Shown: positions 675 to 11,244 of the stretch, one piece after another | Position numbering within the stretch: position 1 is the first letter of the stretch | Layout: each line of letters begins with the position of its first letter | From: Fibrobacterales bacterium | GTDB taxonomy: Bacteria; Fibrobacterota; Fibrobacteria; Fibrobacterales; Fibrobacteraceae | Assembly: GCA_025997455.1 (NCBI GenBank) | Contig: BNUP01000053.1 | Coordinates: 1-13,829, forward strand | Length of the DNA: 13,829 nt | Reading direction: 5' to 3' | Made by a program: the position numbers and the translations under genes | Notes under the pieces: model-generated | The model's database searches: none | What the model saw: only the letters and a program-made list of their open reading frames with translations | What the model was told of the DNA's origin: nothing

Positions 675-772
675 AATGTGGAATGTAGAAAACTTTGCAG
701 TGCAGGGGGGTATATAGGGTGTGGGGTGTAGGGTGTAGGGTGTGGAAAACTCGGCGGTGCATTTAGGGGAGA
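675..772 (-). promoter_or_regulatory. Shared promoter module for the DUF1015 gene: TGCACCGCCGAG box, C-heptamer array, CTGCACTGCAAAG box, then TTTTCTACATTCC with TACATT 7 nt before the ATG
   Basis: The rc of 675-772 reads ctaaatgcaccgccgagttttccacaccctacaccctacaccccacaccctatatacccccctgcactgcaaagttttctacattccacatt-ATG. This cassette recurs at six other gene starts in this window. Confidence 0.45.
712..752. repeat. GGGTRTG-type heptamer array (G-rich on + strand; upstream of minus-strand DUF1015 gene)
   Basis: ggggggtatatagggtgtggggtgtagggtgtagggtgtgg. There are at least 5 G3+ tracts with 3-6-nt loops, which is a G-quadruplex motif. Confidence 0.9.
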
Positions 773-840
773 AGGGAGAAGGTTGGTGTAGGGGCGTGGG
801 AATAGAGTGTAAAGTTGAAAGTTAAAAGTGTAAAGTTATT

Positions 841-884
841 ATTCTCTACTCTCTACTCTTTACTCTTTACTCTTTACTCTTTTC
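841..884. repeat. (CTCTTTA)n / (TACTCTT)n heptamer array, adjacent to an AGTGTAAAG/GTTGAAAG-type array at 816-840
   Basis: attctctactctctactctttactctttactctttactctttt. Related short arrays occur at 3478-3510 (gagtagagtgtaaagagaagagagtaaagttgaaagtg) and 10060-10090 (cttttcacttttcactttcaacttc). Confidence 0.8.
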
Positions 885-983
885 ACTTTTTTGTGGTGTT
901 CTATCCACACCGCGTTCCCCATACCCCATACCCTACACCCCACAATTTTCTACCTTCCCCCAGTAACTAACTTTGGAGGATTT
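884..983 (+). promoter_or_regulatory. Promoter module for the hemerythrin gene: 22-mer GTTCTATCCACACCGCGTTCCC, C-heptamer array, then TTTTCTACCTTCCCCC (TACCTT 951-956) followed by a 27-nt leader containing GGAGGA
   Basis: The same box order as the other modules, but the ATG is 27 nt downstream of the hexamer and the intervening leader carries a canonical SD. This is consistent with the hexamer being a -10 element rather than part of a ribosome binding site. Confidence 0.4.
917..944. repeat. CCCYACA-type heptamer array (C-rich on + strand; upstream of + strand hemerythrin gene)
   Basis: ccccataccccataccctacaccccaca. Confidence 0.9.
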
Positions 984-1391
984 ATGGCTTTTGGTTGGAC
1001 AGACGAGTTGCTCACGGGTAATTCAATGATAGATGAGCAGCACAAGGTGCTTATAAAGGCGATTGTCGATTTACTGGAAGCGAGTAAATCGGGAAACGGC
1101 TTGAACGAGGTTAAAAAGACCGTTGATTTTTTGGCGGATTACACCAATAAGCATTTTAGGGAAGAAGAGGCGTTGCAACAAAAATACGCTTACCCCGATA
1201 TTGAAAATCACAAAAAACTTCACGCCGCGTTTGTGAAAGTTGTTGAGAAAATCAAGGAGAGAATTAACGCAAACGAGTCTCTGCTCACCATTAGCATCGA
1301 TGTACAGCGGGCGGTTGCGGATTGGTTTGTGAATCACATTCTGCGCGAAGACAAAAAAGTCGCAAAGCATATTCAGGACAAAGCGGCATAA
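984..1391 (+). CDS. bacteriohemerythrin (hemerythrin-like O2/iron-binding protein)
   Basis: The ORF track frame runs 891..1391. I place the start at ATG 984, preceded by GGAGGA at 975-980. MAFGWTDELLTGNSMIDEQHKVLI...HFREEE...HKKLH... matches the bacteriohemerythrin N-terminus (W-x-DEL-x-G-x-IDxQHK) and the His/Glu iron ligand spacing. Confidence 0.85.
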   Translation: MAFGWTDELLTGNSMIDEQHKVLIKAIVDLLEASKSGNGLNEVKKTVDFLADYTNKHFREEEALQQKYAYPDIENHKKLHAAFVKVVEKIKERINANESLLTISIDVQRAVADWFVNHILREDKKVAKHIQDKAA

Positions 1392-1423
1392 GGGAACTTC
1401 TAAAAATTGTTGGAATACCTTCA

Positions 1424-1465
1424 GGTAACCTCTACCAACCTCATAAGAGGTTGGTAGAGGTTACC
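1424..1465. repeat. Perfect 19-bp inverted repeat with a 4-nt loop (GGTAACCTCTACCAACCTC-ATAA-GAGGTTGGTAGAGGTTACC), 33 nt after the hemerythrin stop
   Basis: Read directly. There is no adjacent U-tract on the + strand, so it is either an atypical terminator or RNase/protein target, or a REP-like element. Confidence 0.7.
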
Positions 1466-1539
1466 AAGCGGCATGGGCGAACTGCGTTTTTATGGTGAAA
1501 AAGTGCAGTGAACAAAAACGGTAATGCGGAGAACAAAAT

Positions 1540-1830
1540 ATGGCAAGAGATTATATAAAAAGCACGCGGAAAAGTTTGGATATGGAGTCATTGCAAGACC
1601 TCCGTTTTCCTATGGTTATGGAACTCGGCAAGGCGAAGGTGACCGTTCGCGATATGCTGAATTGGCAAAACGGTTCGGTTATTGAATTGGATAGAGTCGC
1701 AGGCGAAAATGTGGATTTGGAGATTAACAAAAAGGTTATGGCTAAGGGCGAAGTTGTGGTTATGAATAATCATTTGGGCTTTCGCTTGGTGACTCTGCTC
1801 TCTCCGGAAGAACGACTGAAGAGTTTGTAA
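1540..1830 (+). CDS. FliN/SpoA-domain protein (flagellar motor switch / T3SS surface-presentation family), 96 aa
   Basis: ELGKAKVTVRDMLNWQNGSVIELDRVAGENVDLEINKKVMAKGEVVVMNNHLGFRLV is a good match to the FliN C-terminal SpoA domain consensus. A GGAGA lies 9 nt upstream. The stop codon directly abuts the next ATG. Confidence 0.75.
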   Translation: MARDYIKSTRKSLDMESLQDLRFPMVMELGKAKVTVRDMLNWQNGSVIELDRVAGENVDLEINKKVMAKGEVVVMNNHLGFRLVTLLSPEERLKSL

Positions 1831-2907
1831 ATGCCTCAACGCAAATTACACGACCGCTTTCACGAAAGATTTCCCAACATTCCAATTTGGCACGCCCCGC
1901 CCTTTTTAATTCACGCTTCACTTTGGATTTTCATTTATCTTGTGCCGGTGATGCTGATACCGTCAGGTCGTGAAAATGCGTGGCAGTTCCGCTATTGGAC
2001 TACTGTTCCGTTTTTGGCGATTATGCTTTCGTTTTATGTCAATTATTTGTTTTTAATTCCCAAATTTCTTTTCAAAAAAAAATTAGTTATTTATGCACTC
2101 ATAAATATTGCGATGTTTTTTTTGCTGTCGTATCTCGGAGGGCTGTGGCACGAACATGTAGTTTCGCTCGGTTATTTGAAACAGCATCCCGATGATTTAC
2201 TTTCTCCCGGTTTCAAGGTGGTAAAAACTATTCTCGGTTTAATATTTGTTCTCGGAATTGCAATTTCAATTCGCACCACAAGCAAATGGTTTATGATGGA
2301 GAACAGCAGTCAAAAATTGCAATTGGAACACCTGCACAGCGAACTTACAATATTAAAAACACAAATTTCTCCTCATTTTCTTTTTAACACTTTGAATAAT
2401 ATTTTAACGCTCATAGATATAAATTCTGAACTCGCAAAACAGACCGTTCAACGACTTTCAAATCTTTTGCGTTCTATACTTTACGATGCGGAGGCGGATA
2501 GTGTGCCTATAAAACAAGAGGTTGAATTTTTGATAAATTACTCAAATTTAATGCGTTTGAGATACGATGAGAAAAAACTTCACTTCAATTTGGAAACCGA
2601 CCTTGAAGAACCAGATGCGCAAATTGCACCGCTGCTTTTAATTCCGCTTTTGGAAAATGTTTTTAAGCACGGAGTCGGCTCCGACGGTTCTGCGAGTATA
2701 GACATAAAAATTACATCAAAAAAGGGAAAGATAATTTACGAGAGTTCAAATACATATTCCCCTAAAACGCACACCGATAAAAGCGGCAACGGAATAGGTT
2801 TGGCAAATGTGCTCAAGCGACTCGAACTGCTTTACGAGAATCGTTTTTTATATGACAGCAAAATTGCAGGCGGAAATTATATAATCAGGCTGCAGGTGGA
2901 GGTTTAA
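1831..2907 (+). CDS. sensor histidine kinase, LytS/YehU family (His_kinase PF06580 + HATPase_c), with a polytopic N-terminal membrane domain
   Basis: N-terminal hydrophobic helices, then LKTQISPHFLFNTLNNI (the phospho-acceptor His box of LytS-type kinases) and a C-terminal GxGxG ATPase region (SGNGIGLANV). The ATG immediately follows the upstream stop. Confidence 0.85.
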   Translation: MPQRKLHDRFHERFPNIPIWHAPPFLIHASLWIFIYLVPVMLIPSGRENAWQFRYWTTVPFLAIMLSFYVNYLFLIPKFLFKKKLVIYALINIAMFFLLSYLGGLWHEHVVSLGYLKQHPDDLLSPGFKVVKTILGLIFVLGIAISIRTTSKWFMMENSSQKLQLEHLHSELTILKTQISPHFLFNTLNNILTLIDINSELAKQTVQRLSNLLRSILYDAEADSVPIKQEVEFLINYSNLMRLRYDEKKLHFNLETDLEEPDAQIAPLLLIPLLENVFKHGVGSDGSASIDIKITSKKGKIIYESSNTYSPKTHTDKSGNGIGLANVLKRLELLYENRFLYDSKIAGGNYIIRLQVEV

Positions 2908-2941
2908 CGGTTTTTAACGGTTTTTATTACCGCAAATCGCA

Positions 2942-3457
2942 TTACCGCGAGTTCAGGTAGTCTAAAACCTTTTGAGTTATGTCGTTTTCGTTTTTCCAAA
3001 AGAGCACCGCACCTGTTGCTCGGTCTAAAACATAGTCATAGCCTTCACTGAGGGCAATTTCATTTACCGCTTTTTTTATCAAGGCGATTATAGGGGCACT
3101 CACCTTTTCATTTTCACTCAAAAGTTCGCCGTTTCTTCCGTAGATTTTTTCGATAAAATTTTTAAGTTCTGCATCGCGCCGTGCATATTCCGCATCTAAT
3201 TCGCGCTTTTGCTCATCGGAAATCATAAGGGACTGCTTTTCTAAGCGTTCCTTTACAAATGCAAGTTCTTTCTGCAAAAGGTTTGCCTGCTGTTCCCATT
3301 TGGCAACTTGCCTGTCGTATTCCTCTTGTGCTTTTTTTGTGCCTTTGTATCCCTCAAATACGAGTTTTGAATCTATATGCGCAACCCGCATTCCGTCTGC
3401 CGCAAATGAAAAATTAAATGCCAAAGCGATAAAAGCAAAGAAGAAAATCGAACGCAT
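2942..3457 (-). CDS. OmpH/Skp-family periplasmic chaperone
   Basis: 171 aa with a signal peptide (MRSIFFFAFIALAFNFSFA) and a charged coiled-coil body (KKAQEEYDRQVAKWEQQANLLQKEL...) typical of OmpH/Skp. TACCTT-type box 6 nt upstream of the ATG. Confidence 0.8.
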   Translation of the reverse strand: MRSIFFFAFIALAFNFSFAADGMRVAHIDSKLVFEGYKGTKKAQEEYDRQVAKWEQQANLLQKELAFVKERLEKQSLMISDEQKRELDAEYARRDAELKNFIEKIYGRNGELLSENEKVSAPIIALIKKAVNEIALSEGYDYVLDRATGAVLFWKNENDITQKVLDYLNSR

Positions 3458-3545
3458 AAGGGTAAGGTAGTTAATTTAGAGTAGAGTGTAAAGAGAAGAG
3501 AGTAAAGTTGAAAGTGGGGGTATAGGGTGTGGGGTGTGGGGGGAA
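3458..3545 (-). promoter_or_regulatory. Promoter module for the OmpH gene: G-heptamer array, CTCTTTA array, then TTAACTACCTTACCC with TACCTT 6 nt before the ATG
   Basis: The rc reads ...ccccccacaccccacaccctatacccccactttcaactttactctcttctctttacactctactctaaattaactaccttaccctt-ATG. Confidence 0.4.
3516..3544. repeat. GGGTRTG-type heptamer array (upstream of minus-strand OmpH gene)
   Basis: gggggtatagggtgtggggtgtgggggg. Confidence 0.85.
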
Positions 3546-3571
3546 ATGGGAAATTGTAGGGGCAGGTTTTA

Positions 3572-3695
3572 ATAAGCATAGCCGCCCAATTAAAAAAAAA
3601 CGAGATAATCTGTATAAACAATGGCGGCAATAAGTATATCTGCCCTATTAAAAAGAAACCTGAGATAATCTGTATATACAATGGCAGAAAACCTG
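3572..3695. repeat. Two tandem ~61-bp AT-rich units inside copy A, each bounded by 6-bp inverted termini (GCCGCC...GGCGGC ; TCTGCC...GGCAGA)
   Basis: Unit 1 is ...gccgcccAATTAAAAAAAAACGAGATAATCTGTATAAACAATGGcggc. Unit 2 is ...tctgcccTATTAAAAAGAAACCTGAGATAATCTGTATATACAATGGcaga, ~80% identical. Copy B (9944-9994) has a single unit. Confidence 0.8.
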
Positions 3696-3749
3696 CCCTT
3701 AGCAGTGCAGAGTAAATTTAACAAGGGAACGCGGTGTGGATAGAACAAC

Positions 3750-3771
3750 AAAAGCCAAGAGTTTGGCTTTT
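3750..3771. terminator. Perfect 9-bp stem hairpin AAAAGCCAA-GAGT-TTGGCTTTT flanked by an A-run and a T-run (bidirectional terminator-like); a second copy lies at 9853-9874
   Basis: The stem and loop are read directly. A-tracts on the 5' side and T-tracts on the 3' side make it look like an intrinsic terminator on either strand. It lies inside the ~400-bp repeat and is followed by three more hairpins (3779-3794, 3817-3835, 3843-3864). Confidence 0.35.
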
Positions 3772-3865
3772 GTAGAGAGAGTGCTTTAGCACTCGTAAGT
3801 TCAGGTTTTTATATACATTGCAAACTCCTTGCAATTCTAAAAGGGCGGGTTAAAAACCACGCCCC

Positions 3866-3939
3866 TACAATTCCTTTCTCCACACCCCACACCCCACACC
3901 CCAACTTGCACCGCCGAGTGATTTTCTACATTCCCTCCT
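3866..3939 (+). promoter_or_regulatory. Promoter module for the lipoprotein/GT-C operon: C-heptamer array, TTGCACCGCCGAGTG (3906-3920), ATTTTCTACATTCCC (TACATT 3927-3932), 7 nt, then ATG 3940
   Basis: Read directly from the sequence. The -35-like TTGCAC and -10-like TACATT are separated by 16 nt. Confidence 0.45.
3881..3905. repeat. CCCCACA heptamer array (upstream of + strand lipoprotein gene)
   Basis: cacaccccacaccccacaccccaac. Confidence 0.9.
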
Positions 3940-4731
3940 ATGAAAAAACTCCTCTCACTTTTTGCAGTATCTGCGCTTGCCCTTGTGGCTTGCAAAAGCA
4001 CCGGCTCGGTATCGGGCACAGTCATTGACCCATTCACGGGAAAAGCGGTTGAACTCCCAACCGTATATGTAAAGGGAACAACATTCTCTTCGCAAAAAAT
4101 ACCGGGCGGTTTGCCGGACGGAACTTTTAAGTTTGAAGGTATTGAGGAAGGAACTTACACGGTGGAGGCGGGCAAAGGTAAATACTCCAAAGGGCATACG
4201 GAATTTACAATTTCAAAAGATGCCGCTAATGCTAAGGCAGATATTTACATTTACAGTCAGAGCACAGACCCCGGACTTTACCGACCTGTAGAAGGTGCGA
4301 ACGCCGAAAAAATCAGTGCGAGAGCAATTTTCCAGCCGATTTGCAAAGAAACGGGAATTGCATTTAGAACAAAATTCACCGTTGAAAATCCGCAAACAAA
4401 AAAGAAAGATGAAAATGTTTTGCCTGCACCGGTAGATGTTCCGCCAGATGTGACTCTGCTCATTAAAATTGCAACTTCCGTGTCCTCACCGATTGAGGCG
4501 ACCTCCTACCCCATACTCACCGAATCTGCAAAAAAACACGCCGATTGCGATGGTGTAGATCCAAAGGAAACTCTGATCGTCCCGAACCTAAGCAAAGGAA
4601 CGGTGATTCCCTCTGCCTACAAGAGTGAAAATTTATACGAAATTAAAGGTTCATTGCAGAGCGGAAAACAAATTCTTGCGATTAAGCAAGATGGTAAATT
4701 GGTAAATGCCTACTATATAAACGCGAAGTGA
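3940..4731 (+). CDS. lipoprotein with an N-terminal carboxypeptidase-regulatory-like (CarbopepD_reg) beta-sandwich domain
   Basis: Lipobox MKKLLSLFAVSALALVAC. SGTVIDPFTGKAVELPTVYVKGT...DGTFKFEGIEEGTYTV fits CarbopepD_reg_2. Its stop overlaps the next gene's start (GTGA at 4728-4731). Confidence 0.8.
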   Translation: MKKLLSLFAVSALALVACKSTGSVSGTVIDPFTGKAVELPTVYVKGTTFSSQKIPGGLPDGTFKFEGIEEGTYTVEAGKGKYSKGHTEFTISKDAANAKADIYIYSQSTDPGLYRPVEGANAEKISARAIFQPICKETGIAFRTKFTVENPQTKKKDENVLPAPVDVPPDVTLLIKIATSVSSPIEATSYPILTESAKKHADCDGVDPKETLIVPNLSKGTVIPSAYKSENLYEIKGSLQSGKQILAIKQDGKLVNAYYINAK

Positions 4732-7196
4732 TTACGAGTCGTTTTCTTTTTCCATTGATTTACACTGCACCTGTGCTCGCAGGTGCGTTGTTGTTATTCC
4801 AAAAAATTCCGCAAAATTCCGCAAAATACTTAGATATTGAATTTGGTTATTATGCAATTCTCTCCGTCTTTTTGTGGTTTTGCATCGCTTTAATTTGGAA
4901 TGCAAAAGAGATTTTTAATAGGGTAAAAGAGACTCTGCCGTCACGGAAGGCTGCTTGCGGACTCGGCGTTTTGCTTGTTGCATTTGCGGCGTTTGCTCTC
5001 ACTCAAATTGACCTTCGGCACAGAGTTTTGAGCGATGAGACGAGTTGGGAATCGATGGCTTTGGAGATGCGTTTTAATAAAAGCGGCGGAGTGTGTAATC
5101 AGGGGGTGTGGAAAGACGGCGTTTTGGAATGCCGAGATGTTGTGAATAATTTTAAGGGTAAGGCGTTTGCACTTGCGCAATCCTTAGCATTTTTATTTTT
5201 AGAACCGAACAGGGACACTTCCCTACTGCTGAATTTACCTCTTGCTCTCGGCTCAATTGCTCTTTTATTTTTTGCATTATTTCGATTTACCCGCGATGAA
5301 TATCTCGCTCTCACGGCGGCGATTTTTTTGGCGAGTATGCCGATTTTTCTGTTTCAGTCCCGTTCCGCATCTACCGAAGTTTTATATGTGTTTTTATTCG
5401 CTTTACTTTTGTGCATATACTCGCTTGTGCCTCCAAAAGAAATTAGTGTTCGGCATTTTGCACTCATAATTCCGTTGCTCGGACTCTTTGCACAGACGAG
5501 GCAGGAGACCGTTTTTTGTTTTATTCCCTTTGCGTTGTATTATCACGCCTATTTTAGAGAAAAAACTTGGCGATTGCCGATTTTTGTTTTTTTGGTTATT
5601 TTTGCGAGTTGGGTTTCTATAAATACAATGATAGCCTACCGCGGTTACGATTTTCAAGGCGGTGAGCATTCTGCACATTCCATTGCAAATTTTATTTACA
5701 ACTTTAAGTCAGATGTTAAAATTATGTGGAATGCGGGACTTGGCAACAACGGTCTTTTGAAAAATCCATTCTACACAACTTATACTTTGCTTTTGTTTGC
5801 AAGTTCAATTTGGTTGCTTTACAGAATAATTTTTCGGCGAAAATATTTGTGGTCGGGATTGTTGTTCGCCTTGTTTTGTTTGCAAATTGCGGTGATACTT
5901 TTTAATGTGTCGGGCACTTTTGAAATTGACATAAATCAGAGGTATGTTTTGGTTGCGTTGCCGTTGTTTGCGATTATTATGGCGGTTGGTTTTTGTGATA
6001 TATTTAAATGTCGCTTATTAGGTTCTGACGACTTATTAACGGGTTCTTCAGAGCCTGCTAAAAATTCAAAATTCGTCTGTATTTTGGCGGCTGTGCTCGC
6101 GGTTTATCTTTCGTTTCATCACAAAGAGAGTTTTAATGCTAACATTTTATATAGCCGAAATATGCTTCTCTCAGAGGAAGATTTTTTGAATACGGAGTTA
6201 AAAAAACTCCCGTCAAATTCAGTTTTTATTTATGCCAGACCTTGGCAAATGCTCGCAAGCGGTTTAACCGGATTTTCAGAACGGCAATTTTTGGGTTGGT
6301 CGCCAAAAGAATTGGATGATATGAGAAATTTTTCCGATGATAACATTTACATTGTGCGCGGGCAAGACGGCTATGGCGAGGTGAATAGAAATTCGCGGGT
6401 GGTCGGTTTTAAAACGACTTCAACAATAGATGCAATTTTGCAGGATTATGCAAATAATAAAATTTTTTCTGTGAATAAGCCCTTCGGTTATCCGCTTGAG
6501 GCATATAAAATCGGAAGGAAAAGAGGAGAATCGAAATATGAAAATTATTACAAACTTTATTTTGATGTGGGCGATTCGGCATTGAAAGTTTCGGTATCAA
6601 CTCCAGAGAATACTTCTAATTCAGAGACGAAAAACATTTTAGCAACGGAAAATTACGAACTTCTTTTGGATAACAAGTTTTATGAAAAAGGAAATGAAAA
6701 ATCGGCAGGTATGCATTACGCAACTTTAACTGCATTTGTCGAAGGCGATACCATAAAAAAGGAAACGCAATTTTTTGTTAGAAGTGAAAATAATCGACTT
6801 TTGCAGGATACAAAACCGAACAGTTGGGAGCAGAGTTGGAGCGAGCCTAAATACGGAAAATCGGTGGAAGGAAATACCATAAAAATTGACGGCAGAATTT
6901 TTGAATATGGGATAGGCTCTCATTCGCCTTCAAAATTAGTATGGGATATAAACGGCAAATACAAAAAATTTCACGGTTTTATTGGCTTAGATGATGAATC
7001 TGCGTGCGGGAACGGAGTTATTTATATTGTAAAAGGAGATGGTAAATCGCTTTACAAATCACGAGTTCTCGCCTCGCACGAATTGGATTCTCTTGAAGTA
7101 AATTTGGACGGAATTAAAACACTTGAACTTGAAACACTCGACAACGGCGATAAAGACTGCGACCACGCAAATTGGGCAGGTGCGTGGCTTGAATAG
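4728..7196 (+). CDS. polytopic membrane protein: ArnT/PMT-like GT-C glycosyltransferase N-terminal domain fused to a C-terminal NPCBM carbohydrate-binding domain
   Basis: 822 aa, GTG start overlapping the upstream stop. There are about 12 hydrophobic helices in the first ~430 aa, with an SDETSWESMALEM loop motif resembling the DExxYxExxxEM signature of GT39/GT83 enzymes. The C-terminal ~140 aa (GIGSHSPSKLVWDINGKYKKFHGFIGLDDESACGNGVIYIVKGDGKSLYKS...CDHANWAGAWL) matches the NPCBM/NEW2 consensus. Confidence 0.8.
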   Translation: MITSRFLFPLIYTAPVLAGALLLFQKIPQNSAKYLDIEFGYYAILSVFLWFCIALIWNAKEIFNRVKETLPSRKAACGLGVLLVAFAAFALTQIDLRHRVLSDETSWESMALEMRFNKSGGVCNQGVWKDGVLECRDVVNNFKGKAFALAQSLAFLFLEPNRDTSLLLNLPLALGSIALLFFALFRFTRDEYLALTAAIFLASMPIFLFQSRSASTEVLYVFLFALLLCIYSLVPPKEISVRHFALIIPLLGLFAQTRQETVFCFIPFALYYHAYFREKTWRLPIFVFLVIFASWVSINTMIAYRGYDFQGGEHSAHSIANFIYNFKSDVKIMWNAGLGNNGLLKNPFYTTYTLLLFASSIWLLYRIIFRRKYLWSGLLFALFCLQIAVILFNVSGTFEIDINQRYVLVALPLFAIIMAVGFCDIFKCRLLGSDDLLTGSSEPAKNSKFVCILAAVLAVYLSFHHKESFNANILYSRNMLLSEEDFLNTELKKLPSNSVFIYARPWQMLASGLTGFSERQFLGWSPKELDDMRNFSDDNIYIVRGQDGYGEVNRNSRVVGFKTTSTIDAILQDYANNKIFSVNKPFGYPLEAYKIGRKRGESKYENYYKLYFDVGDSALKVSVSTPENTSNSETKNILATENYELLLDNKFYEKGNEKSAGMHYATLTAFVEGDTIKKETQFFVRSENNRLLQDTKPNSWEQSWSEPKYGKSVEGNTIKIDGRIFEYGIGSHSPSKLVWDINGKYKKFHGFIGLDDESACGNGVIYIVKGDGKSLYKSRVLASHELDSLEVNLDGIKTLELETLDNGDKDCDHANWAGAWLE
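6018..6056. repeat. ~36-bp imperfect palindromic element (GGTTCTGACGAC-TTATTAACGG-GTTCTTCAGAGCC) lying in-frame inside the GT-C/NPCBM gene (encodes LGSDDLLTGSSEP)
   Basis: About 85% identical (28/33) to the intergenic element at 7401-7439. It sits at the junction between the TM domain and the extracytoplasmic region. Confidence 0.6.
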
Positions 7197-7204
7197 GGGG
7201 AAAT

Positions 7205-7399
7205 ATGAAATACGGAAAATTATCTGATGAAAAATTGACTGTTAAAAAGAAAAAGGTAAAGAGTGCAAAAATTGAAAAGAACGCAGTGGGAGCGGAAATT
7301 GAAAATAACGCGGAAACCTCGAATGTTGCGGAAGGAAAAAACTCCCTGCTAAAAATTCGGGAAAAAATTTTAAACGCAATTGCAGTGATTAAAAAGTAG
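7205..7399 (+). CDS. hypothetical Lys-rich small protein (64 aa)
   Basis: The ORF lies 8 nt after the upstream stop and is preceded by GGGGGAAAT. It is low complexity (KKKKVKSAKIEK) with no recognisable domain, and could be a spurious or small disordered protein. Confidence 0.35.
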   Translation: MKYGKLSDEKLTVKKKKVKSAKIEKNAVGAEIENNAETSNVAEGKNSLLKIREKILNAIAVIKK

Positions 7400-7400
7400 A

Positions 7401-7439
7401 GTAGGCTCTGATGACCTCTTAACGAGTTCTTCAGAGATT
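7401..7439. repeat. Intergenic copy of the same ~36-bp palindromic element (GGCTCTGATGAC-CTCTTAACGA-GTTCTTCAGAG) between convergent genes. It could act as a bidirectional terminator hairpin.
   Basis: Arms CTCTGATGAC / GTTCTTCAGAG form a ~10-bp imperfect stem. It lies between the stop of the 7205-7399 ORF and the stop of the MbfA-like gene. Confidence 0.6.
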
Positions 7440-7442
7440 ACT

Positions 7443-8318
7443 TTACAACTCTATTCCCAGAAAGTGCTTGACCAACTGTGCAATGGCAAACGACACAACG
7501 GAAACCAAAGCACACAAGCCGAACATTTCAAAAAAACGAGTTTTGAATTTCAAATCCTTAGCAACCGAAATATAATAGTTGAACGCCGCTATTATAAACA
7601 CAACAACGGCGAACATAGTAAGCAATGCGTGCAAATACATTTCCTTGGGAAACAGGAGATAAGGTGCAGTCATTAACGCAACGGTTACAAGATACATCGC
7701 TCCTGTGTAAAAACTCGATTTAACTGCTTGCGGATCGCCGTCTGCTTTTGCACTCAGGTAAGCGGAGGCAGTCATTGAAAGAGTCGCAGAAATTCCCGTT
7801 ATGAGACCCGCGAGTGCAACCATTCGAGTATTCTGCAATGCAAATGAAAAACCTGCGAGCGCACCAGTCAGTTCCACAAGTGCATCGTTCATACCGAGCA
7901 CCATAGACCCGACGAATTTCAATCGTTCTTCGTCTAACATATTTATTAAAACTTTTTCGTGCCGTTCTTCATCTGCACGAACTTGTGCGACTTCGGGAAA
8001 TTGGTCTATGAATTTGGAATAATTGACAACCGCAGAAGTTTCACCTTTTTCGAGAAATTTTATCATAAAAGTAAAACCGAAAAGTTTAGCAAAAAATAAA
8101 CTCATATTGACATGAAACCAATTCGCTTTAAGTTTTTTTCCCGTATATTTAGCCCATATTTTTTCGTGGTGGCTTTCGTCTATTGCCAAGTTTTCCAAAA
8201 TCTCACCGTTTTTTTCGCCGATTTTTTTCGCTATGCGTGAATATATCGTCGCACTGTCTGCCTCGCATTGTTGCATAAAGCAGAAGAATTTTGATGTTTT
8301 CGCCGAGAGAGTTGCCAT
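7443..8318 (-). CDS. erythrin-VIT1 family membrane ferritin / iron exporter (MbfA-like: N-terminal ferritin-like diiron domain + C-terminal VIT1/CCC1 transporter domain)
   Basis: Two E-x-x-H diiron motifs (DESHHEKIW, DEERHEKVL) form a rubrerythrin/erythrin-like N-terminal domain. They are followed by the VIT1 signature (GMNDALVELTGALAGFS) and 4-5 TM helices. TACCTT box 7 nt upstream of the ATG. Confidence 0.85.
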   Translation of the reverse strand: MATLSAKTSKFFCFMQQCEADSATIYSRIAKKIGEKNGEILENLAIDESHHEKIWAKYTGKKLKANWFHVNMSLFFAKLFGFTFMIKFLEKGETSAVVNYSKFIDQFPEVAQVRADEERHEKVLINMLDEERLKFVGSMVLGMNDALVELTGALAGFSFALQNTRMVALAGLITGISATLSMTASAYLSAKADGDPQAVKSSFYTGAMYLVTVALMTAPYLLFPKEMYLHALLTMFAVVVFIIAAFNYYISVAKDLKFKTRFFEMFGLCALVSVVSFAIAQLVKHFLGIEL

Positions 8319-8410
8319 TGTGGGGAAGGTAGAAAGTTTGCACGCGGCGGTGCAGATTAGGGTGTAGGGTATGGGGTGTAGGGTGTGGGGAACTCGGCGT
8401 TGCAGAGGAA
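8319..8410 (-). promoter_or_regulatory. Promoter module for the MbfA-like gene: CTGCAACGCCGAGTT, C-heptamer array, TAATCTGCACCGCCGCGTGCAAAC, then TTTCTACCTTCCCC with TACCTT 7 nt before the ATG
   Basis: The rc of this interval is about 95% identical over ~90 nt to 10081-10170 upstream of the epimerase gene. Confidence 0.45.
8359..8390. repeat. GGGTRTG-type heptamer array (upstream of minus-strand MbfA-like gene)
   Basis: tagggtgtagggtatggggtgtagggtgtgggg. Confidence 0.9.
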
Positions 8411-8418
8411 ACCATAAA

Positions 8419-8745
8419 CTACGGTATTGGGTAAAACACCCCGTATCTGTCGTGCAGGTATTCTTTTTCGTTGTAAATGGGTTTTATCAATTCTAATTTT
8501 GCAGGAGTTCCAGCGTTGTTCAAACTGTCTGCAATTTCAGCCGCCCGTGCTGCACCCAATAGTTGCCCGATTACGAAAATTGTGTCGCCAAACGCACTTC
8601 CGTTTTCATATCTTTTTAATTCGACTTCTTTTTTTGCAAAGTTCAGAGTGCTCTCTTCGCGCATAACTATGTATAACACCAAAGCGGCATATATTATTAG
8701 GATAACACAAGCACTTCTTAAAATTGTAAAAAAAATTCTTTTCAT
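8419..8745 (-). CDS. hypothetical small membrane-anchored protein (108 aa)
   Basis: A single N-terminal TM helix (ILRSACVILIIYAALVLYIVM) followed by a soluble domain. It lies downstream of the SPFH gene on the same strand, separated by two hairpins. No family assigned. Confidence 0.5.
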   Translation of the reverse strand: MKRIFFTILRSACVILIIYAALVLYIVMREESTLNFAKKEVELKRYENGSAFGDTIFVIGQLLGAARAAEIADSLNNAGTPAKLELIKPIYNEKEYLHDRYGVFYPIP

Positions 8746-8875
8746 CTCTTTTCATCTCGTTAGAAGGGGTGTTCTTTTTGCAATGACAAACTGCCGAAGG
8801 GGTAGCGGAAAACACGCGTAGGGGCGGAGTTTGCCCGCCCATTATGCGCGGTTGGAGCGAGGGGAAGGCTTTCCC

Positions 8876-9685
8876 CTACCTGACATCTAAAAAGGGAATC
8901 GGTGCATTGCCGCCCATATAAGTCGGGAGTTGTCCGTTCCATTTTTCAATGGATTTTAAGTTCACATAATCTTTGCCGCCCTGTGCACGAATTGCATCTG
9001 CCTGAATGCGTATGGATTCCGCCTCGCCGCGTGCCTGTGCAATTTTTTGGTCTGCCTCAACCTTAATCCGTTCCAAGTTATTTTTCGCCGTGAGTGCCTT
9101 TTGCTCCGCGACTTGCTTGTCCTCAATCGCCTCGTTAAATCCCTTGCTGAAATCGAAGTTGGTAATTTGCACGCCGCCCGCATCGACAATTATATTGTAG
9201 TCCAAAAGTTGCCTCGTTAAACTCTCGGAAATTTCGTTTTTCACCTGCTCACGCATAGTGAGTAATTCCTCCGCCGCGTATCTCGCCACAACCGCTTTAA
9301 CCGTTTCCTGTATGCGCGCCGCGATAATTTTGTTCTCAACATCCAAGCCTACTGTCGAGTAGAGTTCTCTTAATTTGACTTGATCCAAGTGGTAGTTTAG
9401 GGTGAGAACGGTTGAGACAATCTGCATATTTTTAGATGCCGCCTGTGCCGGTGCCTCTGCTTTTTGCGTGCGAATATCGACCTTTGAAATTGTTTGCATT
9501 ATCGGGATTTTGAAGTGCAAGCCCTCATCGCTCACCGATGTGATTTCGCCCCAAGTGAAGACCAACGCCTTTTCTCCCGAACGCACGGTGTAAAACGCAC
9601 CCGATACCACTATTGAGCCTATTACTATTGCGATTATTGCAACAGTGAGAAATTTTGTGCCTATGCTGCCATTTTGATTTACCAT
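8876..9685 (-). CDS. SPFH/band-7 (prohibitin/HflC-like) membrane protein
   Basis: N-terminal TM anchor (FLTVAIIAIVIGSIVVSGAF), then the typical SPFH core (YTVRSGEKALVFTWGEI...) and an Ala/Glu-rich coiled-coil tail (KQVAEQKALTAKNNLERIKVEADQKIAQARGEAE). TACATT box 6 nt upstream of the ATG. Confidence 0.9.
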   Translation of the reverse strand: MVNQNGSIGTKFLTVAIIAIVIGSIVVSGAFYTVRSGEKALVFTWGEITSVSDEGLHFKIPIMQTISKVDIRTQKAEAPAQAASKNMQIVSTVLTLNYHLDQVKLRELYSTVGLDVENKIIAARIQETVKAVVARYAAEELLTMREQVKNEISESLTRQLLDYNIIVDAGGVQITNFDFSKGFNEAIEDKQVAEQKALTAKNNLERIKVEADQKIAQARGEAESIRIQADAIRAQGGKDYVNLKSIEKWNGQLPTYMGGNAPIPFLDVR

Positions 9686-9760
9686 TATGGGAATGTAGAA
9701 AATTAACTCGGCAGTGCAAGTTGGGGTGTGGGGTGTGGGGTGTGGGGTGTGGAGAAAGGA
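9686..9760 (-). promoter_or_regulatory. Promoter module for the SPFH gene: C-heptamer array (on the gene's coding strand), TTGCACTGCCGAGTT, AATTTTCTACATTCCC, 6 nt, then ATG
   Basis: The rc reads ctccacaccccacaccccacaccccaacttgcactgccgagttaattttctacattcccata-ATG. It is homologous to 3881-3939. Confidence 0.45.
9723..9752. repeat. GGGGTGT heptamer array (upstream of minus-strand SPFH gene)
   Basis: ggggtgtggggtgtggggtgtggggtgtgg. Confidence 0.9.
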
Positions 9761-9767
9761 ATTGTAG

Positions 9768-9794
9768 GGGCGTGGTTTTTAACCCGCCCTTTTA
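9768..9794 (+). terminator. Hairpin GGGGCGTGG-TTTTTAA-CCCGCCC followed by TTTT (terminator-like on the + strand); the copy-A equivalent at 3843-3864 points along the minus strand
   Basis: GC-rich stem of 8-9 bp with one bulge, immediately followed by a T4 run. In both copies it would stop transcripts leaving the inverted-repeat-bounded segment before they enter the neighbouring genes (epimerase or OmpH). Confidence 0.35.
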
Positions 9795-10030
9795 GAATTG
9801 CAAGGAGTTTGCAATGTATATAAAAACCTGAACTTACGAGTGCTAAAGCACTCTCTCTACAAAAGCCAAACTCTTGACTTTTGTTGTTCTATCCACACCG
9901 CGTTCCCTTGTTAAATTTACTCTGCACTGCTAAGGGCATGTTTTCTGCCATTGTATATACAGATTATCTCAGGTTTCTTTTTAATAGGGCAGATATACTT
10001 ATTAAAACCTGCCCCTACAATTTCCCATTT

Positions 10031-10060
10031 CCCCCCCACACCCCACACCCTACACCCCAC
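10031..10060. repeat. CCCYACA heptamer array, the inner of two arrays upstream of the epimerase gene
   Basis: cccccccacaccccacaccctacaccccac. Confidence 0.85.
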
Positions 10061-10080
10061 TTTTCACTTTTCACTTTCAA

Positions 10081-10170
10081 CTTCTGCAACGCCAAGTTCC
10101 CCACACCCTACACCCCATACCCTACACCCTAATCTGCACCGCCGCGTGCAAACTTTCTACCTTCCCTCCA
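10081..10170 (+). promoter_or_regulatory. Promoter module for the epimerase/LtaS-like operon: CTGCAACGCCAAGTT, C-heptamer array, TAATCTGCACCGCCGCGTGCAAAC, TTTCTACCTTCCC (TACCTT 10158-10163), 7 nt, then ATG 10171
   Basis: Read directly from the sequence. It duplicates the MbfA-like gene's 5' module. Confidence 0.45.
10099..10130. repeat. CCCYACA heptamer array, proximal and upstream of the epimerase gene
   Basis: ccccacaccctacaccccataccctacaccct. This and its flanks are near-identical to rc(8319-8410) upstream of the MbfA-like gene. Confidence 0.9.
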
Positions 10171-11244
10171 ATGAACATTTTAGTCACCGGTGCGGCAGGG
10201 TTTATAGGGAATGCGGTTTCTTTATCGCTTCTTGCACGAGGACATTCCGTGCTCGGACTCGATAACTTAAACGATTATTATTCTGTGGAACTCAAAAAAG
10301 CAAGGCTTGGCAGATGCAAAGAATTTGCAGAACAAGGTTTATTTTCATTTAAGCAATTAGACATAACAAACACGGAAGACATCAATAAATTTTTCGGCGA
10401 AAATAAATTTGACAGCGAAAATAAAGTAATCTCAGAAGAACTCCTCAAAACTTTACCTCATAAAACAACAAGTTCTTCAGTTCCAACTAAATTTGACGGA
10501 ATAATTCATTTGGCGGCGCAGGCTGGAGTCCGCTACAGTTTGGAAAATCCATACACATATATAGATACAAACATAAAAGGCACTCTAAATTTACTTGAAG
10601 CGTGCCGCAGAAATTCCATAGATAATTTTGTCTATGCGAGCAGCAGTTCCGTTTATGGAGACAATGCAAAAATTCCGTTCAGCACCGAAGACATCGCAGA
10701 TTTTCCCGTCAGTTTATACGCCGCAACCAAACGGAGCACCGAACTAATCGCCCACACATATTCGCACTTATTCGGTATTAAAGCGGTGGGACTCAGGTTT
10801 TTTACGGTTTATGGCGAATGGGGAAGACCAGATATGGCTCCTATGCTTTTTGCGAAAAACATTTTGGCAGATCGCCCAATAAAAATTTTCAACAACGGGA
10901 ATATGCGCAGGGATTTCACATATATAGATGATATTGTGAATGGGACAATTGGAATTTTTGAATGGAATGCCGCACGCAAAATTATTGAAAATGATAAAAA
11001 TGCCGCGAGAACTTTTAACATAGGTCGCGGTGAGCCTGTGGATCTTTTGAATTTTGTGGAAGTTTTGGAAAACGAATTGGGAAAAAAAGCCGAAAAAGAA
11101 TTTTTACCTATGCAGGCGGGCGATGTTCCAGTAACTTGGGCAGACACTTCCGCACTCGAAAAAGTAATCGGTTACAAACCATCGGTTTCCTTAGCACAAG
11201 GCGTTAAAAATTTTGCAAAATGGTATAAATCATATTATGCTTAA
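10171..11244 (+). CDS. NAD-dependent sugar-nucleotide epimerase of the SDR family, UDP-glucuronate 4-epimerase-like, carrying a 28-aa in-frame insertion
   Basis: MNILVTGAAGFIGNAVSLSLLARGHSVLGLDNLNDYYSVELKKARL...IHLAAQAGVRYS...YASSSSVYG...YAATK... matches the GalE/UDP-GlcA-4-epimerase (Cap1J/WbpP-like) pattern with the YxxxK catalytic motif. Confidence 0.9.
   Translation: MNILVTGAAGFIGNAVSLSLLARGHSVLGLDNLNDYYSVELKKARLGRCKEFAEQGLFSFKQLDITNTEDINKFFGENKFDSENKVISEELLKTLPHKTTSSSVPTKFDGIIHLAAQAGVRYSLENPYTYIDTNIKGTLNLLEACRRNSIDNFVYASSSSVYGDNAKIPFSTEDIADFPVSLYAATKRSTELIAHTYSHLFGIKAVGLRFFTVYGEWGRPDMAPMLFAKNILADRPIKIFNNGNMRRDFTYIDDIVNGTIGIFEWNAARKIIENDKNAARTFNIGRGEPVDLLNFVEVLENELGKKAEKEFLPMQAGDVPVTWADTSALEKVIGYKPSVSLAQGVKNFAKWYKSYYA
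10414..10497. mobile_element. 84-bp in-frame insertion in the epimerase gene flanked by a 9-10-bp direct repeat (T)AAATTTGAC (10404-10413 and 10488-10497), with an internal inverted repeat CAGAAGAACT...AGTTCTTCAG
   Basis: The DRs are read directly. The insert encodes SENKVISEELLKTLPHKTTSSSVPTKFD between a duplicated KFD immediately before the conserved IHLAAQAGVRYS. UDP-GlcA epimerases normally have a single KFD-like tripeptide directly before xVIHLAAQ. Confidence 0.55.

Follow-up and report, generated by a model that had tools for sequence, protein, structure and literature searches.

Why should seven functionally unrelated genes on one short piece of bacterial DNA share an elaborate upstream sequence, one hexamer of which falls, in all genes except one, six or seven nucleotides before the start codon? 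The question is raised by contig BNUP01000053.1 from a metagenome-assembled genome (MAG) of the Fibrobacterales, analysed here over its entire 13,829 nucleotides (nt), which we call the window. A previous reading of the letters alone, hereafter the sequence-only reading, proposed that a C-rich heptamer array, a TGCACCGCCGAG-type box and TTTCTAC(A/C)TT form one ordered module at seven gene starts and that the resulting mRNAs are leaderless. Our results suggest that the box containing the hexamer is probably the extended -10 element of a general promoter of this lineage that drives leaderless mRNAs, and that the arrays and the near-identical copies around it are accessory.

Read in coding orientation, the regions upstream of all seven genes contain CTAC(A/C)TT. 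From the end of the hexamer TAC(A/C)TT to the ATG we measured 7 nt for the DUF1015 gene, 6 for OmpH, 7 for the lipoprotein, 7 for MbfA, 6 for SPFH and 7 for the epimerase, in agreement with the spacing first claimed for six of the seven. Hemerythrin is indeed the exception: its hexamer lies 27 nt from the ATG, and the Shine-Dalgarno (SD) sequence GGAGGA in its leader (975-980) occurs in no other leader among the seven. The module was described more uniformly than we find it. Array and hexamer are present at all seven starts, but the hemerythrin and OmpH promoters lack the TGCACCGCCGAG-type box; copies of this box occur on either side of the array, and the DUF1015 promoter has a degenerate proximal copy (TGCACTGCAAAG) and a perfect one on the far side. 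Likewise, TTTCTACMTT has exactly six sites in the window, each upstream of a gene start, but the OmpH promoter carries only AACTACCTT, without TTTCTAC, and its array is 51 nt upstream. The two-box pattern is found four times and the array-plus-box pattern seven times, where 200 shuffles give an expectation of 0. The box is present at each of the seven transcription units whose start falls within the window, irrespective of function. The modules are laid out as follows.

DUF1015 module, 675..761, minus strand: ATG at 674; 7-nt spacer 675-681; hexamer TACATT 682-687 inside TTTCTACATT 682-691; degenerate box TGCACTGCAAAG 693-704; array of C-rich heptamers 705-747, read on the minus strand; perfect TGCACCGCCGAG 750-761, beyond the array.
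Hemerythrin module, 917..983, plus strand: array (CCCYAYA)n 917-944; TTTCTACCTT 947-956 with the hexamer at 951-956; 27-nt leader 957-983 with the SD at 975-980; ATG at 984; TGCACC box absent.
OmpH module, 3458..3543, minus strand: ATG at 3457; 6-nt spacer 3458-3463; TACCTT 3464-3469 in CTACCTT, without a T-tract; other heptamers 3478-3507; C-rich array 3516-3543; TGCACC box absent.
Lipoprotein module, 3880..3939, plus strand: array (CCACACC)3.4 3880-3905; box TGCACCGCCGAG 3907-3918; TTTCTACATT 3923-3932 with the hexamer at 3927-3932; 7-nt spacer; ATG at 3940.
MbfA/VIT module, 8319..8406, minus strand: a solo 91-nt cassette; ATG at 8318; 7-nt spacer; TACCTT 8326-8331; box TGCACCGCCGCG 8343-8354; array 8356-8390; distal box TGCAACGCCGAG 8393-8404.
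SPFH module, 9686..9752, minus strand: ATG at 9685; 6-nt spacer; TACATT 9692-9697; box TGCACTGCCGAG 9707-9718; array 9720-9752 of 4.4 units, one more than in the near-identical lipoprotein copy.
Epimerase module, 10083..10170, plus strand: distal box TGCAACGCCAAG 10085-10096; array 10099-10133; box TGCACCGCCGCG 10135-10146; TTTCTACCTT 10154-10163 with the hexamer at 10158-10163; 7-nt spacer; ATG at 10171.

These distances depend on the start codons being right. Pfam backs all seven gene calls, and several of the starts are secure independently of the motif, because five of the boxed genes' ATGs are the earliest possible start after an in-frame stop, the OmpH and lipoprotein N-termini are signal peptides (of the lipoprotein type in the latter), the epimerase opens at MNILVTGAAGFIG with its Rossmann motif at residue 7, and the Pfam match of the DUF1015 protein runs from residue 4 on.

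The window is a termite-gut-type Fibrobacterota contig. The closest relatives of its epimerase are only ~63% identical and come from Fibromonadaceae/Fibromonadales MAGs, and in the loci that carry these homologues many first genes have TTTwCTAyATT 6-9 nt ahead of their ATG, and internal genes have GGAG-type SDs. Loci compared with the window are labelled L015-L030. The statistics are based on 85 gene calls, in the window and in four Fibromonadaceae/Fibromonadales loci, with a first gene defined as one that is divergent from its neighbour or more than 40 nt away from it. The distance from hexamer to ATG is most often 7 nt (15 cases) or 6 nt (10 cases). In 31 of the 85 genes the hexamer lies 5-9 nt from the ATG; no SD-like sequence is found in any of these 31, against 28 of the 54 others (Fisher p = 1e-7), which supports, by comparison, the earlier view that an SD appears only where there is a leader. 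All 31 start with ATG, against seven non-ATG starts among the other 54 (p = 0.04). Close boxes precede 26 of 48 first genes and 5 of 34 operon-internal ones, so that 26 of the 31 are first genes. We also scanned blindly, without reference to gene calls, ~124 kb drawn from ten related loci after redundancy was removed, with any ATG that opens an open reading frame (ORF) of at least 80 amino acids as the target. Such an ATG followed TTTWCTAYVTT at a distance of 5-9 nt at 13 of 28 sites and CTAYVTT at 30 of 128; of 135 sites of the reversed control, only 1 had this placement (p about 1e-9). Random placement relative to start codons, which the sequence-only reading had named as a refutation, is thus not what we find: in these related Fibrobacterota loci the box is strongly non-random.

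The genomic settings of the box are also informative. Divergent gene pairs with 33-36 nt between their ATGs (L023/L024/L025 at 9967/10001; L023 at 13743/13779) hold a pair of boxes set back to back, both 6-8 nt from the ATG on their side, and these spacers leave no room for leaders. In relatives the box precedes housekeeping genes such as leuA, mlaD, murC, sufB, hsp33 and the epimerase orthologues; four of the latter have TATATT 6-7 nt ahead of the ATG, and the sequence further upstream is different in all of them. An ATG-agnostic search with the array-plus-box pattern led to seven JGI metagenome loci in which TTCTACATT again lies upstream of ORFs. The distance to the ATG is 7 nt for two distinct genes, 13 nt for sufB, 18 nt for murC (with AAGGAG and no array) and 34 nt, with AAGGAAGG, in one more case. 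GGAG-type SDs are present in the leaders of hemerythrin, L018 murC, L019 and L022. By its SufB homologues the array-bearing L017 belongs to the Fibrobacterota; the same homologues pointed to a Fibrobacteraceae scaffold of 409 kb, on which the layout recurs (TTCTATATT-6-ATG, TACATT-8-ATG and TATTTT-7-ATG).

When 30 unique promoters are anchored on the hexamer, a(a/t)TTT(t/a)C is conserved directly upstream and information is confined to about -20 to -8, with none in the -35 region. Selection of the set accounts for part of the invariance of TA..TT but had no bearing on the flanking TTTwC. The hexamer has the T-12, A-11 and T-7 of a sigma-70 -10 element, and there is no -35 hexamer 16-18 nt upstream of it. 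A scan for the classical TTGACA-N17-TATAAT arrangement in the OmpH-lipoprotein and SPFH-epimerase spacers, the DUF1015-hemerythrin spacer being left unscanned, found no site. TTGCAC, which had been placed 15-18 nt upstream as a -35 element, was rejected in that role: (T/C)TGCAC is 12, 15, 16, 18 and 18 nt from the hexamer, TTGCAC proper occurs only twice, the element is missing from two promoters and from the relatives, and -35 information is lacking.

This arrangement has a published counterpart. In bacterial 'TA-led' genes, which are leaderless, a TANNNT signal adjoins the translation start (Zheng et al. 2011, PMC3160421), and in group C of GeneMarkS-2 a Pribnow box lies 6-8 nt from the starts of first genes and SDs are found at the remaining ones (PMC6028130); Actinobacteria and Deinococcus-Thermus typify this organisation (PMC3160421, PMC6028130). 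We read the box as an extended -10 and the 6-7-nt class as leaderless because the pattern found here is this signature: TAnnnT near first-gene starts, no SD there, SDs at internal or leadered genes, and an ATG start. It differs from the described cases in belonging to the Fibrobacterota, within the Fibrobacteres-Chlorobi-Bacteroidetes (FCB) group, in the conserved 5' extension aaTTTwC, in lacking a -35, and in an AT-rich setting of 37-44% GC. Leaderless genes with a -10 next to the start are an established category, and no report of them for the Fibrobacterota was found in the literature; the phylum was not found named in the text of either paper (PMC3160421, PMC6028130), and the only literature statements on it that were found describe its SD use as weak to intermediate.

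The neighbouring Bacteroidota offer a different comparison. Their sigma-A promoters have the consensus -33 TTTG / -7 TAnnTTTG and give leadered mRNAs with a non-SD signal. The core TAnnTT is common to both and the superphylum is the same, but in our set the bases 3' of TAnnTT vary (CC, TT, AA, AC and others), the 3' TG is not conserved, and the anchored Fibrobacterota promoters have neither TTTG 19-21 nt upstream nor information at -33. One suggestion of the sequence-only reading was a genome-wide promoter type outside both the sigma70 and the Bacteroidota -33/-7 models. A lineage-wide type is the better reading, and it is not of the Bacteroidota kind; its placement outside sigma70 does not stand, since TAnnnT fits.

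We infer from these comparisons that a(a/t)TTT(t/a)C-TA(C/T)(A/C)TT would serve as the extended -10 of a general, probably housekeeping, sigma-70-family promoter with no conserved -35, at which RNA polymerase would initiate ~7 nt past the hexamer. For six of the seven genes this +1 would be the A of the ATG, as first proposed, giving a leaderless mRNA translated without an SD, and where the ATG is further off, as in hemerythrin (27 nt), a short leader with an SD would result. The arrays, the TGCACCGCCGAG boxes and the near-identical segments of 91-435 nt would be dispensable for promoter function; they would form a species-specific family of dispersed repeats, locked in orientation to the promoter, that changes by whole heptamer units and has presumably spread among promoter regions through recombination, gene conversion or transposition. 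The leaderless character predicted for the 6-7-nt class is well supported by the comparative evidence.

Several points weigh against this interpretation. Among publications on Fibrobacterota 5' ends (mapping of transcription start sites, primer extension, leaderless mRNAs) no direct study was found. The source genome contributes 13.8 kb of evidence, and the cassette with its boxes occurs in no other genome scanned. L023 and L025 are orthologous, so the counts from the 85 genes are not fully independent (the blind scan was de-duplicated), and the relatives' gene starts are automatic calls of which at least one, L028 sufB, is wrong. Some boxes lie 10-16 nt from the ATG (13 at sufB, 16 in L030), which would mean very short leaders and not none. 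Five of the 31 close boxes precede apparently operon-internal genes and would need internal promoters, and any role of the arrays is purely inferential.

Two of the related loci deserve separate mention. In L028 (6001-6040) the sufB call starts 36 nt too far upstream and runs through the TTTACTATATT box, and the orthologous start in L017 is 13 nt past the box; MAG start codons are likely to be miscalled where promoters abut genes. In L022 one box stands in a 22-nt divergent spacer, within the neighbour's coding sequence (3529-3550), and the epimerase box (9990-10004) lies inside the 3' end of the upstream glycosyltransferase gene, with a 4-nt gene overlap. This suggests that internal promoters are embedded in coding DNA there.

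How did such similar modules come to stand before different genes? The near-identity of the MbfA and epimerase modules, put at ~95% over ~90 nt, is real and amounts to 97% over 91 nt (8316-8406 against 10083-10173), the ATG included. That of the lipoprotein and SPFH modules is larger than had been claimed: they belong to an inverted repeat of 275 nt at 99% identity (3629-3903 against 9729-10003), and with its flanks ~435 nt of the OmpH-lipoprotein spacer is an inverted copy of 9686-10071. The repeats other than the modules themselves are these.

Large intergenic repeat, copy 1, 3504..3903, OmpH-lipoprotein spacer: 275-nt core 3629-3903 with four hairpins; 22-nt box 3725-3746.
Large intergenic repeat, copy 2, inverted, 9729..10071, SPFH-epimerase spacer: an extra C-rich array 10024-10061; GTTCTATCCACACCGCGTTCCC 9886-9907.
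22-mer GTTCTATCCACACCGCGTTCCC, third exact copy, 898..919, plus strand: directly abuts the hemerythrin array, upstream of it.

The exact copies of GTTCTATCCACACCGCGTTCCC, at 898-919 and 9886-9907 on the plus strand and 3725-3746 on the minus strand, are distributed one per long divergent spacer, and the 22-mer may be a regulator site or the end of an element. A 60-nt unit is tandemly duplicated at 3571-3685 in the OmpH-lipoprotein copy (1.9 copies, 85% identity) and single in the SPFH-epimerase copy. The 275-nt core has four local hairpins, one of them terminator-like (3748-3773), and an internal TTTTTATATACATT box that faces the lipoprotein or the SPFH gene. It folds better than shuffled sequences on both strands (z = -2.65 and -4.0), and its two copies, being 99% identical, allow no test of covariation; candidate identities are a small RNA, a region bound by protein and a set of REP-like (repetitive extragenic) palindromes. 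Rfam at permissive thresholds gave only two chance-level eukaryotic matches on the repeat region.

These copies raise the possibility that the modules are instances of a mobile or recombinationally spread promoter-bearing repeat, in the manner of miniature inverted-repeat transposable elements or Correia elements, that delivers an outward promoter to the adjacent gene. We regard this as possible, though less than probable; it explains the copies and not the box, and it is compatible with the box being an extended -10. Besides the segments of 91 nt at 97% and 275 nt at 99%, which end at or include the ATG, the modular build with one solo cassette (MbfA) speaks for it, as do the inverted array and box ends that flank all three divergent spacers. 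The accompanying sequences are species-specific (the TGCACC box here, AAATCAGCG in relatives), suggesting homogenisation within a genome. The cassette is also absent from 185,579 species-representative genomes, in which the two-box pattern gave 14 scattered chance matches, none in Fibrobacterota and two of them the overlapping contig ends of one high-GC Gemmatimonadota MAG. On the other hand, no target-site duplication, transposase or defined termini were seen in the window, and every copy stops 6-7 nt short of the ATG, which would require selection or precise replacement. Arrays are missing at many of the relatives' promoters. Plasmids and phages contain no match to the OmpH-lipoprotein spacer, nor do viral contigs contain the cassette pattern. 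The orthologous epimerase and sufB promoters of relatives lack arrays and, at 60-89% protein identity, are too distant to count as empty sites. The Correia elements of Neisseria are promoter-carrying miniature dispersed repeats. The window repeats resemble them in being short, dispersed, near-identical and intergenic, with inverted ends and a promoter beside unrelated genes, but they have no target-site duplication or defined termini that we could find, their ends coincide with start codons, and their content is tandem heptamers.

The C-rich arrays follow strict rules of their own. In 16 of 16 arrays from the window and related loci the C-rich strand is the coding strand of the downstream box and gene, an orientation that the search pattern did not dictate for about 12 of them. 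As a rule the last C-run ends 22-28 nt ahead of the hexamer. The unit is CCCYACA in the window and CCCYATA or CCCCAAA in the JGI loci. The window has seven canonical G-quadruplex (G4) motifs, with at least four G3+ tracks and loops of 1-7 nt. Every one of them falls in an array and on the strand that is the template for the downstream gene; the array of the lipoprotein gene falls short, with three tracks. The arrays look like an accessory, orientation-locked, dispersed repeat family that is evolutionarily labile. We consider them labile because the lipoprotein and SPFH arrays differ by one unit (3 against 4) inside a 99% identical repeat, and because arrays are not conserved at the orthologous sufB promoter, where L017 and L028 (89% protein identity) keep the box and its 13-nt spacing and only L017 has arrays. 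Between samples, array length was identical at both loci recovered twice (L015 = L018, L016 = L021). Many of the relatives' promoters have no array at all. Other tandem repeats stand next to the C-rich arrays, namely (GGGAGAA)2, (AAAGTTA)4, (TTACTCT)6 and (CACTTTT)3 (767-889, 3478-3507 and 10058-10077), and 3478-3507 is an array with a 14-nt period. The source genome seems generally prone to tandem repeats with a 7-nt period in its spacers.

The arrays might modulate promoter strength, for example through a template-strand G-quadruplex, an i-motif or repeat number. In a stronger form, they would be a functional upstream promoter module of termite-gut Fibrobacterota, with a G4 or i-motif abutting the -35 region, unit number setting output, and the whole a portable unit copied ahead of start codons to make leaderless genes; this we consider rather doubtful. 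Known systems offer partial parallels. In Deinococcales, template-strand G-quadruplex motifs cluster at transcription start sites (PMC6200779). Both cases have G3+ runs separated by short loops, frequently with more than four tracks, on the template strand a short way before the start, and in both the lineage has many leaderless genes (by prediction in the present case); the motifs of the window differ in being strict 7-nt tandem repeats in a low-GC genome, part of dispersed repeats, and not conserved at orthologous promoters. The short tandemly repeated repetitive (STRR) sequences of cyanobacteria are families of 7-bp tandem repeats in intergenic and promoter regions, which can form hairpins as inverted pairs and have no known function (PMC2670836). 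Like them, the arrays are tandem 7-bp units of several families and intergenic only: Tandem Repeats Finder reports period-7 arrays of CCCYACA, TTACTCT, AAAGTTA, GGGAGAA and CACTTTT, all in spacers. The STRR1 unit is CCCCA(A/G)T, to which CCCCACA, CCCCATA and CCCCAAA come near. Unlike STRRs, the arrays occur in another phylum, have an orientation strictly tied to the downstream promoter and are linked to an extended -10 box. In Haemophilus influenzae, 7-bp repeats at the hmw promoters tune expression. Promoters are likewise tuned by the TAAA tract of Neisseria meningitidis nadA (PMC2791445) and by the GAA tract ~40 nt upstream in Mycoplasma gallisepticum vlhA (PMC6258824). The window shares with these cases a tandem tract directly upstream of the core promoter and a one-unit difference, 3 against 4, between copies, but at two loci no length polymorphism between samples was seen, and the genes are housekeeping genes and not contingency surface genes.

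A box so near the start codon could instead act in translation. As a non-SD ribosome-binding or translation-enhancer signal within a transcribed 5' untranslated region, of the kind known from Bacteroidota and assigned to group B of GeneMarkS-2, it would leave the promoters themselves further upstream. The Fibrobacterota belong to the FCB group, in which non-SD motifs dominate and which is ~90% group B (PMC6028130), a modest 37% of genes in Fibrobacteria use an SD (PMC10783764), and five close boxes stand at apparently internal genes. Group B motifs, however, precede all genes, and here the counts are 26 of 48 first against 5 of 34 internal genes, the latter having GGAG-type SDs. The box is also found 17-34 nt upstream with a normal SD after it, which is redundant for a ribosome site and expected for a promoter, and the 33-nt divergent spacers would put both promoters inside the neighbour's coding region. 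The sequence, moreover, fits TAnnnT. Because the box is depleted at internal genes, coexists with SDs and sits in 33-nt spacers, we judge a leadered non-SD signal unlikely.

The stronger proposal of the sequence-only reading was a dedicated regulon, which would be served by an alternative or extracytoplasmic function (ECF) sigma factor, or by an activator with the TGCACCGCCGAG box or the arrays as its binding site. Five promoters hold eight copies of the TGCACCGCCGAG 12-mer between them, most arrays end 22-28 nt ahead of the hexamer, near -35, and the relatives with arrays have a different upstream consensus in common, CCCMAGCG...AAATCAGCG, spanning about -38 to -15. Yet the 12-mer varies from 12 to 18 nt in its distance from the hexamer, sometimes lies beyond the array, and is absent from two promoters and from all relatives; the boxes accompanying the arrays are species-specific. 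The genes have no function in common and are simply every transcription unit that starts in the window, which itself contains no sigma-factor or regulator gene, and the -10 box is common to housekeeping promoters without arrays. Because every transcription unit of the window has the box, and the relatives' housekeeping genes have it too, a dedicated regulon is unlikely. The weakest explanation, that the repeats are an assembly artefact, draws on the presence of near-identical internal repeats in a MAG contig and is extremely improbable: each repeat lies between intact genes that are not those around the other, a heptamer unit and the 60-nt duplication set the copies apart, and the same architecture is found in independent JGI, ENA and NCBI assemblies.

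If mapping of transcription start sites confirms the extended -10 reading, the Fibrobacterota would join Actinobacteria and Deinococcus-Thermus as a lineage with many leaderless first genes, and the contrast with the neighbouring, leadered non-SD Bacteroidota of the same superphylum would bear on the evolution of translation initiation modes. The more interesting variants are the TTTwC extension without a -35, the promoter-locked arrays with G4 potential, and the copying of whole modules up to the ATG. The heptamer arrays offer a small, naturally occurring test case for whether G4 or i-motif repeats close to a promoter tune transcription in bacteria, and together with the modules they illustrate the spread of promoter sequences within one genome. 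In practical terms, start calls in these MAGs are error-prone, as at L028 sufB, and an aaTTTwCTAyATT-N7-ATG layout is advisable in constructs for the expression of Fibrobacter fibre-degrading enzymes.

The remaining content of the window is less closely connected with the promoters. Pfam supports DUF1015, hemerythrin, FliN, a LytS-type kinase, OmpH, a CarboxypepD_reg lipoprotein, an NPCBM protein, the VIT/MbfA-like protein, SPFH, the epimerase, a sulfatase and a GGDEF protein, and a tRNA search of the window found none. The 148-nt region upstream of fliN has a GGAG SD and no CTAYVTT box. On the 3' side of the hemerythrin gene (1424-1465), 33 nt past the stop codon, there is a perfect 17-bp stem with an 8-nt loop and no T-run. 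A second repeat of ~30-35 nt (...TTAACGAGTTCTTCAGAGATTACTTTA...), unrelated to the cassette, occurs at 10417-10500, 6019-6053 and 7402-7445. At 6019-6053 it is inside the NPCBM ORF and at 7402-7445 it is intergenic. At 10417-10500 it is on the reverse strand, in a 28-residue in-frame insertion in the epimerase that is absent from a 63%-identical homologue, and in this it resembles repeats of the Rickettsia palindromic element (RPE) type, which insert in frame into genes.

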